The notes below the pieces were generated by a model. It had not been told where the DNA came from and did not search any database. It saw nothing but the letters and a program-made list of their open reading frames with translations. 26,449 nucleotides of DNA from a virus. A program made the position numbers and the translations under genes. Where the stretch lies: the UHGV virus genome UHGV-1509762, one strand, 5' to 3'. Position 1 is the first letter of the stretch, and the number at the start of each line of letters is the position of its first letter. Below, one piece after another: positions 186 to 25,341 of the stretch.

Positions 186-1166
186 TTATAACGTCACTCC
201 GCCTTTTAGAGGATTCAGTGCGACGGCATTTTGCAGGTAGTCAGGCGCAAGGTGCGCATAGGCCATCGTCTGCTGAATGCTCGCATGTCCCAGAATCTGT
301 TGCAGTGCGATTATATTGCCCCCATTCATCATGAAATGGCTTGCGAATGTATGCCGCAGGATGTGGGTTGCCTGATTGGGTGGTATATCTGGCTTCACTC
401 TGCGTAAAATCCCGCAAAACTTCTCATAATCAACTTTGAATAATTTAGCGCTGGCCTCCTCTTTAACTTTTTTCTCCAGTTCCTCAGAAATCGGCACGGT
501 TCGCTTTTTACCGTTTTTGGTTTTCAGGAAGGTAACCCTGCAATTTGTAATCTGTGCTGGTTTTAGCGTGGCAACTTCCGTCCATCTTCCTCCAGTGCTC
601 AGACATAAAAGTGCGACAAGTAAGTCATCACCATCCAAAACATTTAACAGTTTTTCGATTTCTGCTTTTTCCAGGAACGTCATTTCAGGGTTGGCCTCCG
701 CCAGTGGCGGCAGTCCGTGAATTGGGTGTTGCCCGGAAAATTCATCCAATTGAATTAATTTTGTGAACATGCCGGATAATCGGTACATGTCACGGTTTAT
801 CGTTGCGGCACTGATACCATCACGTAGTCGCATGGAACGATAATCCATCAAAGCTCTTTTGCTCATCCGGCTCACTGGTATATCACCTATGCCGCTGATG
901 GTTTTGAGCAGATGATTAAACTCTTTTGTTCCATGCTCGTGGTTTTGCCCGTGATATTTCCACCAGATGTCCAGCAACTCACTCAAAGTTCTGCGATCTG
1001 CTCGCTGACCTGCCCATTCTTTCTGGCTGGCGTAGGCGATTGTGTATCGCTCAAATGCTACAGCCTCAGCTTTTCTTTCAAATTTCCTGCGGATGCGTTT
1101 TCCGTCGCGACCGCGAGGTCTAATGTCCACTTCATAGCGTCCATCATCGAGCTTCTTAATTGACAT
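186..1166 (-). CDS. int: Tyrosine site-specific integrase (P2 Int-like)
   Basis: 336-aa track ORF with tyrosine-recombinase C-terminal signature (HILRHTFASH ... LGHASIQQTMAYAHL: HxxR box and nucleophile Tyr). Start placed at the internal Met (MSIKKLDDGRYEVDIRP, as I recall the P2 Int N-terminus) because an AGAGGG ribosome-binding site sits 8 nt upstream of the ATG at 1166. Confidence 0.93.
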   Translation of the reverse strand: MSIKKLDDGRYEVDIRPRGRDGKRIRRKFERKAEAVAFERYTIAYASQKEWAGQRADRRTLSELLDIWWKYHGQNHEHGTKEFNHLLKTISGIGDIPVSRMSKRALMDYRSMRLRDGISAATINRDMYRLSGMFTKLIQLDEFSGQHPIHGLPPLAEANPEMTFLEKAEIEKLLNVLDGDDLLVALLCLSTGGRWTEVATLKPAQITNCRVTFLKTKNGKKRTVPISEELEKKVKEEASAKLFKVDYEKFCGILRRVKPDIPPNQATHILRHTFASHFMMNGGNIIALQQILGHASIQQTMAYAHLAPDYLQNAVALNPLKGGVTL

Positions 1167-1235
1167 AAGAAAGCCCTCTGACGCTGTATTCACCATCTTG
1201 GTAACAAATAGTGAAAATGTAATGTTTATAGAGTG

Positions 1236-1529
1236 TTAACCAGTCTGTTTTTCGGAGTGGTCTGATTCTGTTGGTTTTTGCCCAATGTGTGCGAGAGCCG
1301 GCGCGATCTGACCAGCTTGTGGTGACGTATCACCAGTCATTAACCAGAGCGTATATTTTTTAAATAAAGGCGTATTTGTGACTCGCATAACGATGCTGAG
1401 ACCAGGGTCTTTATGCCCACTTTCGTAATTTTTGACTGTTCCTAGAGCTATCCCGCTAATTTCGCTGAATTTCGCCTGTGTTAAGCCTTCTGCTTTCCTA
1501 ATCGCTTTCAGTTTTTCGAATGTCTGCAT
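1236..1529 (-). CDS. C: Immunity repressor (P2 C-like, helix-turn-helix)
   Basis: 97 aa with HTH segment LTQAKFSEISGIALGTVKNYESG and C-terminal SGQIAPALAH motif. Sits between int and the divergently transcribed cox, as in P2. Confidence 0.85.
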   Translation of the reverse strand: MQTFEKLKAIRKAEGLTQAKFSEISGIALGTVKNYESGHKDPGLSIVMRVTNTPLFKKYTLWLMTGDTSPQAGQIAPALAHIGQKPTESDHSEKQTG

Positions 1530-1558
1530 TTGACAGTAACCTATTGGTGACTTATATT
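1530..1558 (+). promoter_or_regulatory. Early rightward promoter (Pe-like): TTGACA, 17-bp spacer, TATATT
   Basis: Seen directly: TTGACA at 1530-1535, 17-bp spacer, TATATT at 1553-1558. It abuts the start codon of the divergent repressor gene and points toward cox (ATG at 1682). Confidence 0.6.
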
Positions 1559-1585
1559 CCCGTCAAAAGGTTGTGTATTGGTGAC
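1542..1585. promoter_or_regulatory. Direct repeats TATTGGTGAC x2 flanking the -10 element; candidate repressor operator half-sites
   Basis: Seen directly: TATTGGTGAC at 1542-1551 (inside the promoter spacer) and at 1576-1585 (just downstream of the -10). P2-type C repressors bind direct repeats flanking the -10 of Pe (established knowledge); assigning these repeats to that role is inference. Confidence 0.45.
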
Positions 1586-1601: not shown

Positions 1602-1642
1602 CCAGTCCCTAGAAAGGACAGGGGCGACCTAGAAGGGACTGG
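1602..1642. promoter_or_regulatory. Dyad CCAGTCCCT ... AGGGACTGG in the C/cox switch region; candidate Cox or regulator binding site
   Basis: Seen directly: CCAGTCCCT at 1602-1610 and its reverse complement AGGGACTGG at 1634-1642. The same 9-mer also occurs at 122-130 near the att end. Confidence 0.4.
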
Positions 1643-1681
1643 ATCTAATAAGGGTAACACGAAAGCAAAAAGGGCTAATCA

Positions 1682-1954
1682 ATGGAAGTCAATGACTATG
1701 TGATTCAGTACCCGATTGATGCGGTACATACGGTTAAGTTTGCAGAGTTACTTGGTAAGCCAGAAACGGCTGTAGTCAAGATGGTAAAAGAGAATAAATT
1801 GCCAGTTATTGAGCTTCGTGATCCAAGTAAGCCGAACGCCCGTGTCGGTGAGAAGTGGGTTTTCATTCCAGAGTTTAATCGCGCTGTACGAGAGGCGTTT
1901 TATAACCGACCAGTTGAACAGCGTGATGCATGGCTTTTGTGGATGGGGTTGTGA
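1682..1954 (+). CDS. cox: Cox-like excisionase / early-promoter repressor
   Basis: 90-aa ORF, first gene of the rightward early operon, divergent from C; size and position as in P2 (Cox is 91 aa). The segment KENKLPVIELRDPSK...GEKWVFIPEFN resembles the P2 Cox core as I recall it. Confidence 0.8.
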   Translation: MEVNDYVIQYPIDAVHTVKFAELLGKPETAVVKMVKENKLPVIELRDPSKPNARVGEKWVFIPEFNRAVREAFYNRPVEQRDAWLLWMGL

Positions 1955-5973: not shown

Positions 5974-5987
5974 CAATAATGATTGAC

Positions 5988-6018
5988 ATGCTTGATTTTG
6001 TATTCACAAATCAAGCAT
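5988..6018. repeat. Perfect 11-bp inverted repeat (ATGCTTGATTT / AAATCAAGCAT, 9-nt spacer) preceded by TTGACA; candidate operator or regulatory hairpin upstream of the methyltransferase
   Basis: Seen directly at 5988-5998 and 6008-6018, with TTGACA at 5983-5988. Lies in the gap between gene A and the methyltransferase start. Confidence 0.6.
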
Positions 6019-6084
6019 CAAGTAAACATCGATGATGAGAAAGAACAATGCTACAATCCCCACAGCATTAGAAGGAGGTTTATC

Positions 6085-7134
6085 TTGATTAAGGTTGTTG
6101 ATTTATTCTGTGGCGCGGGTGGCTTGACTCACGGTCTTCAGAAGTCGGGGCTTAATGTAGTTGCAGGTTATGATATAGATGCAGCCTGTCGATTTGCCTA
6201 TGAGACAAATAATAAATCACTCTTTGTCCAGAAAAGTGTTACAGACATTGAGGACGGCGAATTAGTTAAATATTTCGAAGGAGCGAAGGTTCGAGTTTTG
6301 GCTGGTTGTGCCCCATGCCAACCTTTTTCAAGCTATACCAATAGTGCTAAATTAGGGGTAGTACGTTCAAAAGATAAAAGATGGTCTTTGCTTTATAGCT
6401 TTGCTAAGCAAATTAAATTTGCAAAGCCAGATATTATTACAATGGAAAACGTTCCCCGAGTGGTGAATCATAAGGTTTTTAAGGACTTCATTAAGTCTCT
6501 TAAAAATGATGGCTATTTTGTTTGGTATGGGGTGGTGTTTTGTCCAGACTATGGAATGGCACAAAGTCGTTCAAGATTAGTGTTATTGGCATCAAAATAT
6601 GGAGAAATAGAAATAATTCCACCAACTCATGAGAAGAATGATTATAAAACGGTGCGAGATATAATCGGTAATCTTCCTGAAATTAGTGCCGGTGCTGTTC
6701 ACGCTGGAGATAAACTACATCGCTCTGCATCATTATCTGATATTAATATAAAAAGAATAATGGCATCAAAACCTGGTGGAACATGGCGTGATTGGCCAGA
6801 AGAGCTAAGAGCAAAATGTCATACAAAAGAAAGTGGTTCTACATATACTGCTGTATATGGGAGAATGTGTTGGGATAAACTTGGACCGACAATTACAACT
6901 CAATGTATTGGATATGGGAATGGACGCTTTGGGCACCCTGTCCAAAATAGAGCATTAAGTTTAAGAGAGGCTGCGCTATTACAGTCATTCCCAGAAAAGT
7001 ATGAGTTTTGGCCTGATGATGTAAAAATTGAAATGAGAACAGTTGCGCGTTTAATAGGTAATGCTGTTCCTGTTAGGCTTGGTGAGGTCGTAGGTGAAAC
7101 TATTTTAAAACATTTGTCAGAAATGAATATTTAA
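6085..7134 (+). CDS. DNA (cytosine-5)-methyltransferase
   Basis: C5-MTase motifs in canonical order: motif I LFCGAGG (FxGxGG), motif IV GCAPCQPFS (catalytic PCQ), motif VI ENV (ITMENVPRV), motif VIII QSRSR, motif X GNAVPV. Start set at the TTG at 6085 because a GAAGGAGG RBS lies 6 nt upstream and motif I follows within about 10 residues; the N-terminal extension of the track ORF (from 5983, also TTG) is low-complexity. Confidence 0.9.
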   Translation: MIKVVDLFCGAGGLTHGLQKSGLNVVAGYDIDAACRFAYETNNKSLFVQKSVTDIEDGELVKYFEGAKVRVLAGCAPCQPFSSYTNSAKLGVVRSKDKRWSLLYSFAKQIKFAKPDIITMENVPRVVNHKVFKDFIKSLKNDGYFVWYGVVFCPDYGMAQSRSRLVLLASKYGEIEIIPPTHEKNDYKTVRDIIGNLPEISAGAVHAGDKLHRSASLSDINIKRIMASKPGGTWRDWPEELRAKCHTKESGSTYTAVYGRMCWDKLGPTITTQCIGYGNGRFGHPVQNRALSLREAALLQSFPEKYEFWPDDVKIEMRTVARLIGNAVPVRLGEVVGETILKHLSEMNI

Positions 7135-7146
7135 AACTTATGTCAT

Positions 7147-7170
7147 CCCCCCTGTCAAAAAACAGGGGGG
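7147..7170. terminator. Hairpin between convergent genes (CCCCCCTGT / ACAGGGGGG stem, A-rich loop); likely bidirectional terminator
   Basis: Seen directly: 9-bp GC-rich inverted repeat in the 41-bp gap between the methyltransferase stop (7134) and the stop of the minus-strand ATPase gene (7176). Confidence 0.6.
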
Positions 7171-7175
7171 TATAA

Positions 7176-9134
7176 TTAGATTCCCTCAACTATTTTCATA
7201 ATTCTAGCTGCATCATTCTTTTTGTCTTGATATTCAGCATAGGCTTGTTTTGATTGCACGATTAGGTCATTATATGTCAATATTTTTCCATTGATAGAAA
7301 GTAATTGCATATTTATAAAGTGTTGGTTCTCTTGTAAATATCCAGAGCCAACCAGGAATATTACTTCTATATGCGGTATATTTCCACCTGGGCAATTTTT
7401 AGGGTTATTGGAGAACCATTGTGTCGTTGCCTGTACATATTTATTACCTTGTGCGACTAGGTTCATTATATCTGGGTGCACTTTAGGTCGTTTCATCTCA
7501 ATAATTACATGCTTGCCAGAAACGGTTTTGAAAGCGATATCAATACGAGCACCGCTAGCAGCATCAGGGTTTATCTGTTTTAGTTCCTTGGTCAATGTTT
7601 GCTCCATAACAGATGTGCCTGTGACTCTTTCCCATGAAGGATCCAATAACCATAAATGATCATATAAATACATTTGTACAGCTCTTTCAAGCTGATTTTC
7701 ATCAGTTATTTTTTGGAATTTTTCAATTACTTTAAGGCGTTGCGAAGTAATTTCATAAAACATGCTTGCTTCAATGTCATTGACAGATGCAAATACATCT
7801 TTAAAATTTTCTGATTGAAGGTTGCTTATTTTATCTAATGCATCAAGGTTGTCTTGAATTCTAAGTCTTTCAAAGGCTAATACCGTATTTTTTAATACGG
7901 TTTTTCTTGCTGCTTTTTGTTCTTCCTCATTACCAGAAAAACGGAATGTGTTTACTCGTCCAATTAACTTTTCGGCACTTTCTCTCTCATGTTTTTTGAG
8001 AGAATTCAGCCATTCACTTACTATTGGAGTATTGCTTTTAACTTCATTTACTCCTTTTTCGCGTCTCCATTTATCCCAATCTTTATCGATTAGTTGTAGC
8101 GTTCTTTCCAGAAAACCTTTAAGTACAGGGTATCTTGGATCATTCTGTTGTAGTTTTTGACGAGAAGATGTTGCCATATCAGGCTTTTCGTTATCATCTA
8201 GAAAATCGGCGACTATTTCACCGACCAGATAATTGGTGAATACTTTAGCACTTCCAAATTCTAATAATATGTCCTCCTCAAAAACACGTCCGTGAGAGAT
8301 TACAGTAATGCTGTTGTTAGATATTTCAGGGTCTTTCTTTAACTGTGATGGCTTAACTACACTGCCAATGTACCCACTAACTTTTACATCTTTTCCTTCA
8401 AAGGTAATAGTATTTGGTAATATGTTTTTTTGTGTGATGTTTGTGCAGGATTTTATCCTTTCAGGGTCGGATTCGCCAAATTCCCAAATGAACTCGAGAT
8501 CTGAAAGGAAATCTCTATCTGCCGGTGTAATATCGGTCCCATTAATTTTAACTGTAAAGTTATGGTTGGGGCCAATAATGCTAAATCGACGAGCTATTCG
8601 CTTTCTGAGGTAAGTTTGAGTCCTATCAATGGCTTTTTTTAGTTCAAATAATTTAATTGTAGTGCCGTAAGCAAGATTTTCGGGTATTTCAAGGGAGTCA
8701 GCAATATAGTTTTTTGATTCTTTGATACTTTGCTGTAAATCTTTGACATCTACCTCAAAGGCCTGAGGCTGTTCCCCCTTTTTGTACGAATAAACTTGGA
8801 TTTTATTGGCAAGTGAAAACATGGCAAGCTTACCAATACCTTTTCTGCCCATAACTTGACGTTTTAGATGATCGCTTTTGGCTCTTCCATGTTCCCTGCG
8901 AGCATAACCGACTTTTAGGAACTTATTAATAATGTCATCTTTAGACATGCCATGACCATCATCTTTAATGATGACCTCTCCTTTCTCAACATCAAGTGTA
9001 ATTTCTACATTTTGAGCATCTGCATCCCATGCATTTGATATAATCTCAGTTAGTACCGCGGGAGTATTGGAATAGAGACTCATCCCTAGGTGATTTAGCA
9101 CATTCAAATCAATTTTAATTTCGAAATCTGACAT
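7176..9134 (-). CDS. GHKL-family (MORC/MutL/Hsp90-like) ATPase with a C-terminal PD-(D/E)xK-like nuclease motif; putative ATP-dependent restriction or defence nuclease
   Basis: N-terminus carries the Bergerat-fold motifs: N box EIISNAWDADA (E30, N34, D37), G1 box IKDDGHGM (DxGxG), G2 box GRKGIGK. The C-terminal segment ARIDIAFKTVSGKHVIIEMKRPK has a D ... ExK arrangement (D532, E546, K548; DNA 7491-7541) consistent with a PD-(D/E)xK nuclease core. AAGGAA RBS precedes the ATG at 9134. The gene is AT-rich relative to the phage backbone. Confidence 0.85.
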   Translation of the reverse strand: MSDFEIKIDLNVLNHLGMSLYSNTPAVLTEIISNAWDADAQNVEITLDVEKGEVIIKDDGHGMSKDDIINKFLKVGYARREHGRAKSDHLKRQVMGRKGIGKLAMFSLANKIQVYSYKKGEQPQAFEVDVKDLQQSIKESKNYIADSLEIPENLAYGTTIKLFELKKAIDRTQTYLRKRIARRFSIIGPNHNFTVKINGTDITPADRDFLSDLEFIWEFGESDPERIKSCTNITQKNILPNTITFEGKDVKVSGYIGSVVKPSQLKKDPEISNNSITVISHGRVFEEDILLEFGSAKVFTNYLVGEIVADFLDDNEKPDMATSSRQKLQQNDPRYPVLKGFLERTLQLIDKDWDKWRREKGVNEVKSNTPIVSEWLNSLKKHERESAEKLIGRVNTFRFSGNEEEQKAARKTVLKNTVLAFERLRIQDNLDALDKISNLQSENFKDVFASVNDIEASMFYEITSQRLKVIEKFQKITDENQLERAVQMYLYDHLWLLDPSWERVTGTSVMEQTLTKELKQINPDAASGARIDIAFKTVSGKHVIIEMKRPKVHPDIMNLVAQGNKYVQATTQWFSNNPKNCPGGNIPHIEVIFLVGSGYLQENQHFINMQLLSINGKILTYNDLIVQSKQAYAEYQDKKNDAARIMKIVEGI

Positions 9135-9319: not shown

Positions 9320-9341
9320 TTGACATGGCTTTGACATGGCT
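9320..9341. repeat. Perfect tandem duplication TTGACATGGCT x2 near cos
   Basis: Seen directly at 9320-9330 and 9331-9341, about 40 bp from the cos cohesive-end sequence. Function unknown: could be promoter -35-like elements or terminase-binding (cosB-like) repeats. Confidence 0.6.
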
Positions 9342-9396: not shown

Positions 9397-9538
9397 TGCG
9401 CGCTGGCGGTGGTGCTGATTTTATTTTTTCAGCGTCTCAGCGCGTCGTAATGGCGTTTAGATTGTGCGCCGGGGCGTTGGTGTGTCTGCGGGCTGTTTTG
9501 TGCGGTGGTGAGCGTGTGAGGGCGTGATGACGGGGTGT

Positions 9539-24747: not shown

Positions 24748-25341
24748 ATGTTTACTAAGCGACGATTAAAAAATATTAACTGGGAGGCAAGTTCAGTGAT
24801 TCTTGCTATGGTTCTCTTTGTTGGAAATATATTTTATACAAATCATCGTGATGATATAACTATGGAGGCTGAGAGGGACAGTATCAGAACAATGTTTGCA
24901 TATGAAATCGCTAATAACCATCGCGCTCTCACTTTTCTTGATAAAACGAGATATATTGGCTTTGACGAAAATTCGGAGCATTTTGTTGGCGAGCCTTTTG
25001 CCATTAATGTCAAATCATTAGGGGGGCCTCGCTTACAGATTGCATTAAACCAGACTGATAAAGTGTTTAAATCCTACTTCAGCGAATTAAGTAAGCTTGA
25101 TAAAGAGGATGTTACTCTTCTTATGGACTATTACCATGAGCAAAGCATCCTGCTGGAGCGTGTAAAATCTACGTTACAGAAGATGAAAAGTGGTAATGAT
25201 ATTAAAGTTGATATTGATGGTTACTTATTAGAAGAACACTTCATGAATGAGCTTAATCTTTCTAATATTTTGCTTAAACGCTATAGCCATTTGTTGTCAC
25301 AACACGCCAAAGAACATAAAACAAAAGATTTACATAATTGA
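24748..25341 (+). CDS. Hypothetical membrane-anchored protein of unknown function (cargo gene at the G-downstream hotspot)
   Basis: 197-aa ORF in a visibly AT-rich island; TAAGGTG RBS just upstream of the ATG; N-terminal basic stretch then one hydrophobic helix (SSVILAMVLFVGNIFY), remainder charged. No family recognised. Confidence 0.6.
   Translation: MFTKRRLKNINWEASSVILAMVLFVGNIFYTNHRDDITMEAERDSIRTMFAYEIANNHRALTFLDKTRYIGFDENSEHFVGEPFAINVKSLGGPRLQIALNQTDKVFKSYFSELSKLDKEDVTLLMDYYHEQSILLERVKSTLQKMKSGNDIKVDIDGYLLEEHFMNELNLSNILLKRYSHLLSQHAKEHKTKDLHN

Follow-up and report, generated by a model that had tools for sequence, protein, structure and literature searches.

The locus considered here raises the question of whether the spacer between the genes C and cox of a P2-like prophage carries an immunity switch and, if so, of which immunity type. 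The window, i.e. the whole 26,449-nt stretch of DNA that was analysed, is a P2-like prophage with its genes in the integrated order (att, int, C, cox, B, A, cargo, Q/P, late genes), and its best full-length match is Escherichia phage PhiR44_1 (97.8% over the whole length). The layout around C is that of a P2-type switch: C on the minus strand and cox on the plus strand are divergent, the promoters Pe and Pc converge in the spacer, and the first early gene belongs to the Cox family. According to the analyses described below, 1530-1585 is almost certainly Pe together with the bipartite C operator (O1 and O2) of a WΦ-type P2-like prophage (Peduovirus, immunity class III). The sequence features and the identity to WΦ were observed in the window; binding, bending, repression and start sites are taken from the literature on the identical sequence. 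The features are collected in Table 1.

Table 1. Coordinates of the features discussed in the text (positions in the window)
Feature	Position	Strand	Basis and remarks
Tyrosine integrase gene int	186-1196	-	ORF; Pfam Int_N and Phage_integrase
Immunity repressor gene C	1236-1529	-	ORF, 97 aa; HTH_3 (Pfam); ATG at 1529-1527
Pe -35 hexamer TTGACA	1530-1535	+	Adjoins the C start codon (CAT, 1527-1529); within the AJ245959 promoter feature
Operator half-site O1, TATTGGTGAC	1542-1551	+	Inside the -35/-10 spacer; exact match
Pe -10 hexamer TATATT	1553-1558	+	Consensus scan
Pe transcription start	~1564/1565	+	AJ245959 promoter feature ends at window position 1564
Operator half-site O2, TATTGGTGAC	1576-1585	+	About +12 to +22 of the Pe transcript; exact match
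12-mer direct repeat, candidate Cox operator between Pe and Pc	CCTAGAAAGGAC 1608-1619; CCTAGAAGGGAC 1628-1639	+	
Pc, promoter of the lysogenic C-int operon	1646-1682 (approximate)	-	AJ245959 annotation transferred via 100% identity; abuts the cox start
cox, first gene of the early operon	1682-1954	+	ORF; Pfam Phage_Cox, E = 9e-24; 100% identical to WΦ Cox
C5-cytosine DNA methyltransferase	5983-7134	+	Pfam DNA_methylase, E = 1e-55; after replication gene A
GHKL-ATPase protein, 652 aa	7176-9134	-	PADLOC 'Type II restriction enzyme' models; ParaMORC3 in PhiR44_1
197-aa ORF	24748-25341	+	Between tail-fibre assembly gene G and tail sheath gene FI

Early promoter and direct repeat in the C-cox spacer

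The two hexamers of Pe are separated by 17 bp and match the sigma-70 consensus at 11 of 12 positions, and in the consensus scan Pe was the sole promoter-like site in 1100-2100. Two copies of TATTGGTGAC in direct orientation flank the -10 hexamer, with 34 bp from the start of one to that of the next. A preliminary description of this DNA had read both elements correctly: for the promoter TTGACA-17 bp-TATATT adjoining the repressor start codon, all coordinates agree by direct reading and by the promoter scan, and the positions and spacing it gave for the 10-bp repeat flanking the -10 hexamer are exact. Its title, by which the repeat brackets the whole promoter, went too far, because O1 lies in the -35/-10 spacer and O2 downstream of the transcription start.

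The chance level of such elements was estimated from dinucleotide shuffles of the whole 26.4-kb window. Exact 10-mer direct repeats with a spacing of 10-50 bp number six pairs (five loci) in the window, against a mean of 1.23 in the shuffles, and promoters matching at 11 or more of the 12 positions number two, against a mean of 0.29. Window-wide, the repeat alone or the promoter alone is thus only mildly unusual, and neither is decisive. The occurrence of both together within 56 bp of the single 152-bp C-cox spacer is not chance. The 8-base core ATTnGTGAC is found three times in 26.4 kb, two of these being O1 and O2. The question of chance is settled by the exact identity of the repeat to an experimentally defined operator.

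Identity with the WΦ switch and comparison with related switches

A megablast search of the phage collection showed that 1150-2000 is 99.6% identical to coliphage WΦ (AY135739/NC_005056 and AJ245959), and the other phage records covering all of this segment, from Escherichia, Yersinia and Salmonella P2-like phages, are 97.9-99.9% identical. Within it, 1500-1700, which comprises the end of C, the whole spacer and the cox start, is 100% identical to both AJ245959 and AY135739, and so are C and Cox to their WΦ counterparts at the protein level. AJ245959 is the original WΦ switch record and carries the promoter features of its depositors; its plus-strand promoter (1757-1793) corresponds to window 1528-1564 (Pe) and its minus-strand promoter (1875-1911) to window 1646-1682 (Pc). 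The half-sites TATTGGTGAC, their 34-bp spacing, the Pe hexamers and the position of Pc are all the same as in WΦ, with no difference within the switch. The feature is therefore already known and ordinary; it is neither new nor particular to this phage.

The WΦ switch was worked out experimentally between 1999 and 2007, and gel shifts, SPR kinetics, CAT reporters, operator mutants and spacing deletions have been published. The WΦ operator and start sites were reportedly first defined by Liu and Haggård-Ljungquist in 1999; the operator and start-site facts used here come from the GenBank annotation and from subsequent publications of that laboratory. The wild-type WΦ Pe promoter/operator oligonucleotide used for plasmid pEE938 has been printed (Ahlgren-Berg et al. 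2007, PMC1904263). An exact search placed this oligonucleotide without its cloning ends, TTGACAGTAACCTATTGGTGACTTATATTCCCGTCAAAAGGTTGTGTATTGGTGAC, on window 1530-1585 with 0 mismatches; it starts with the TTGACA at 1530, and O2 forms the final 10 bases of its phage portion. In the same paper TATTGGTGAC is named as WΦ O1; with CGCCAACAGT in its place, repression in vivo is lost, although the half-site that is left is still bound by C in vitro. Purified WΦ C binds fragments with O1 or O2. The protein forms dimers in solution and also in vivo, and it bends its target DNA. Shortening the distance from the transcription start to O2 by 6 or 10 nt does not relieve repression but alters the gel-shift pattern. 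The Pe and Pc transcripts of WΦ overlap by 82 nt, O2 lies 60 nt from the Pc start, and the regulation of Pc by WΦ C is given as not known (PMC1904263). In the window, the 82-nt overlap and the 60-nt distance are consistent with a Pe +1 at about 1564/1565 and a Pc +1 at about 1645/1646.

A companion study described the WΦ half-sites as 10 bp long, 34 bp apart centre to centre and flanking the Pe -10 (Henriksson-Peltola et al. 2007, PMC1904268). There, point mutation of one half-site was tolerated and mutation of both fully derepressed Pe, with EMSA and SPR kinetics given for the wild-type and mutant operators. The preliminary description had called the TTGACA/TATATT element an early promoter, and this is WΦ Pe, annotated in AJ245959 at window 1528-1564 and present as the wild-type oligonucleotide in the CAT assays of PMC1904263. 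Likewise, the direct repeats that it took for operators of a P2-family C repressor are the WΦ half-sites O1 and O2 (PMC1904268, PMC1904263). The gel shifts, reporter assays and P2/WΦ operator comparison that it proposed had all been published for WΦ.

The repressor itself leads to the same assignment. At 97 aa, C has the features of P2-type repressors in general (about 100 aa, an N-terminal HTH, homology to P2 C); it is 46% identical to P2 C (E = 3e-33), and its sole PDB match is the P2 C protein (2XCJ/2L49, E = 4.5e-25), a structurally solved binder of direct repeats. P2-type C repressors that are at least 95% identical are placed in the same immunity group, and WΦ belongs to immunity class III (Nilsson et al. 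2011, PMC3448106). The C protein of the window, with 100% identity to WΦ C over 97 aa, falls in the WΦ group.

P2 (NC_001895) shares the gene order int-C / cox-B, a small HTH repressor C, convergent Pe and Pc, a TTGACA -35 at the C start codon and two direct-repeat half-sites around the Pe -10. In contrast to the 10-bp half-sites of the WΦ type at 34 bp, those of P2 are GTTTAGAT, 8 bp long and 22 bp apart. In P2, the -35 and the C ATG share 2 nt, whereas here the two abut. A lone half-site is bound by WΦ C but not by P2 C, and the Cox targets are 9-bp cox-boxes in P2 and a 12-nt repeat in WΦ. The P2 half-site GTTTAGAT was not found in the switch, and its one occurrence in the window, at 9455, is at chance level. 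Its absence from the switch indicates that the prophage is not of P2 immunity and that P2 and this phage are heteroimmune, which bears out the earlier expectation of an immunity specificity other than that of P2. The promoter and the repressor gene had also been described as lying face-to-face as in P2. This holds for the convergent layout, but Pc is much closer in P2. Here about 117 bp separate Pc from the C start codon downstream of it, and the stretch common to both transcripts is 82 nt in WΦ and about 35 nt in P2.

Among the other P2-like phages, P2 Hy dis likewise has a C-type repressor acting on two direct repeats at Pe, and its C is 44% identical to WΦ C. The CI/Apl switch of phage 186 resembles the present one in its convergent lytic and lysogenic promoters and in a second repressor of the Apl/Cox type that doubles as excisionase. 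However, 186 CI is a two-domain protein of 196 aa; its operators are inverted repeats, and it acts at a distance with the help of CII. The 97-aa repressor with a single HTH domain and the direct-repeat operators seen here do not fit a 186-type switch, and no cII-like ORF was found between cox and B. Thus, in the comparison with the operators of P2, WΦ and 186 that the preliminary description had proposed, WΦ matches exactly, P2 differs in half-site and spacing, and 186 has inverted repeats.

The most diverged relative that still aligned was Enterobacter phage ENT4, with 73% nucleotide identity and a C protein 73% identical. In ENT4, TTGACA/TATATT is retained and each of the two half-site positions still has an ATTnGTGAC core, at a distance of 35 bp, in an otherwise diverged spacer. 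This pattern lends modest independent support to the suggestion that the half-sites are constrained elements. The ENT4 half-sites read AATTAGTGAC and AATTTGTGAC (596-639 of the ENT4 sequence, 35 bp apart, around the same Pe hexamers). In addition, an inverted copy, ATTCGTGAC, on the minus strand at 624-632 abuts the ENT4 O2, making this O2 partly palindromic.

Proposed operation of the switch and alternative readings

Taken together with the published work on WΦ, the arrangement suggests the following operation. In the lysogen, C would be transcribed leftward from the weak convergent Pc, and a C dimer, possibly of higher order on DNA, would bind O1 and O2, which at 34 bp are about three helical turns apart, and bend the DNA. 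Bound C would occlude the Pe -10 and the start region, keeping cox and the replication genes off, and this shut-off of Pe would confer immunity to superinfecting phages with the same operator. Both half-sites would be required for repression in vivo, though a single half-site is bound by WΦ C in vitro. When the level of C drops, Pe would fire and Cox would be made first; Cox would then bind its own repeats between Pe and Pc, repressing Pc and promoting excision. The overlap of about 82 nt between the convergent transcripts may add mutual interference.

The Cox product is both the Pc repressor and an excisionase. Pc is a weak match to the consensus and was not called by the consensus scan, its best reading being TTGATT-N17-TGTTAC; its placement here is that of the 37-bp feature of the annotation. 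Between Pe and Pc, two copies of CCTAGAA(A/G)GGAC lie 20 bp apart, and this is the only 12-nt direct repeat in the Pe-Pc region. A third copy of the 12-mer, CCTATAAGGGAC, is located at 116-127, beside att and the 3' end of int; the att-proximal Cox site of P2 occupies the corresponding position. According to PMC5009727, the target of WΦ Cox between Pe and Pc is a 12-nt direct repeat. The 12-mers at 1608-1639 and 116-127 are therefore probably the WΦ Cox sites, serving as switch operator and excision site; in this assignment the repeat sequence itself is read from the window, and its length and region are those given in PMC5009727.

Three readings compete with that of 1530-1585 as Pe and the WΦ-type C operator. 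One is that the 10-bp repeat is a chance duplication without function and only the promoter is real, to which we give next to no credence. The shuffles yield about 1.2 exact 10-mer direct repeats at 10-50 bp, so that one in 26 kb would be unsurprising; however, this one sits in the one 152-bp C-cox spacer, around the -10, and it is identical to the published operator, in which mutations relieve the repression of Pe in vivo and change the binding of C in vitro. The core is also kept at both ENT4 positions despite about 27% divergence. Published CAT assays of operator mutants, EMSA and SPR on the identical sequence have already refuted a chance duplication. We likewise see hardly any chance that the repeats are bound by Cox, Int or IHF instead of C. 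Cox-family proteins also bind direct repeats, and P2 Cox autoregulates Pe at high concentration (PMC3936717), but the 12-nt repeat reported for WΦ Cox agrees with CCTAGAA(A/G)GGAC (1608-1639) rather than with the 10-mer, matches to tgTGGaCa, the arm-site consensus of P2-type Int, lie at 153-173 instead of at the operator, and it is purified WΦ C that binds fragments with O1 or O2.

The remaining reading accepts the match to WΦ and takes the prophage, or its switch, for a decayed remnant that is non-functional in its host, which we judge highly improbable. Identity of the window to the nearest full-length relative is only 97.8%, and its cargo differs from that of WΦ; on the other hand, the viable phage WΦ shares C, Cox, both promoters and both operators at 100% identity, and the reading frames of int and of the early and late genes are intact and collinear with those of PhiR44_1, which is also a viable phage. 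From this we infer that the present copy of the WΦ-type switch is functional.

Two further elements lie close to the operator. A third operator-like site, TATTTGTGAC, occurs at 1373-1382 inside the C gene, with one mismatch and in the same orientation as O1, from which it is 169 bp, or about 16 helical turns, away; it is the third of the three ATTnGTGAC matches in the window. Such a site might in principle serve as an auxiliary C site for looping or for autoregulation of the lysogenic operon, which we consider very unlikely. A counterpart is absent from the ENT4 C gene, so conservation gives no support. Sites with 1-2 mismatches have been judged unlikely to matter, only on the ground of being unpaired (PMC1904268). 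The other element is a perfect 9-bp inverted repeat, TCAAAAGGT / ACCTTTTGA (1563-1571/1584-1592), that encloses O2 and starts at the Pe transcription start. A 5' hairpin on the Pe transcript was considered and rejected: its folding energy of -9.1 kcal/mol (z = -1.19) is equalled or bettered by 25 of 200 shuffles and is indistinguishable from chance.

Distribution of the switch module and the rest of the prophage

Of 5,426 complete E. coli genomes, 260 contain the C-Pe-Pc segment (1236-1700), 249 of them at 99% identity or more, always as a single copy and always in the chromosome, and at least 23 phage records have the same module. In IMG/VR, all 33 contigs with the half-site pair at a 34-bp period have the Pe context; the full 56-bp module is identical in 32 of the 33, and the other differs by one substitution, which lies just upstream of the transcription start. 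The claim that the repeat sequence is specific to this phage is thus contradicted by WΦ, the 260 E. coli genomes, the phage records and the IMG/VR contigs. Since the copies are almost invariant, they offer little variation for an independent test of constraint or covariation, and only the comparison with ENT4 gave a signal. A search of one-genome-per-species contigs for the half-site pair with a gap of 14-34 nt returned 113 stretches, nearly all from unrelated taxa and with arbitrary spacings; by our own arithmetic about 23 are expected by chance in 596 Gb, and tandem repeats add more. No WΦ-type copy was found in this one-genome-per-species set, in which the sole match with a 24-nt gap lacks the Pe context.

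As another copy of a module common in P2-like phages of E. coli, Yersinia and Salmonella, the locus has small discovery value. Its value is in annotation: the prophage would have WΦ immunity (class III), and its lysogen would be expected to be immune to superinfection by phages of the WΦ type but sensitive to P2. In addition, Pe, O1, O2, Pc and the probable Cox sites are now placed for engineering or inducing the prophage. The operator architecture had been recognised correctly from the sequence alone, and the locus can serve as a positive control for such reading.

Upstream of the switch, int appears in the WΦ record (CDS of AJ245959 and AY135739) in a shorter form of 981 nt, corresponding to window 186-1166. 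Just downstream of the int stop codon, TGTGGACACT occurs in tandem at 153-162 and 164-173, 11 bp apart. This repeat matches the arm-site consensus tgTGGaCa (PMC3448106), and 153-173 is probably the P' arm of attP/attL.

Outside the switch, the window is a mosaic relative and carries a C5-methyltransferase and paraMORC-like cargo after gene A. PhiR44_1 has the same methyltransferase and paraMORC-type cargo in this place, and 5983-9134 is a probable methylation-linked defence module. The only other site in the window that matches the sigma-70 consensus at 11 or more positions, TTGACA-16-TAAAAT at 7780-7807 (+), lies antisense inside the paraMORC-like ORF. The interval between G and FI is a second variable locus in P2-like phages; the ORF that it holds here matched nothing in Pfam or PADLOC, and its annotation in PhiR44_1 is hypothetical. 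Between the cargo and the portal gene Q, TTGACATGGCT is repeated in tandem with an 11-bp period in non-coding DNA (9320-9341). The non-coding stretch from the cargo to Q is the region of cos in P2-like phages.
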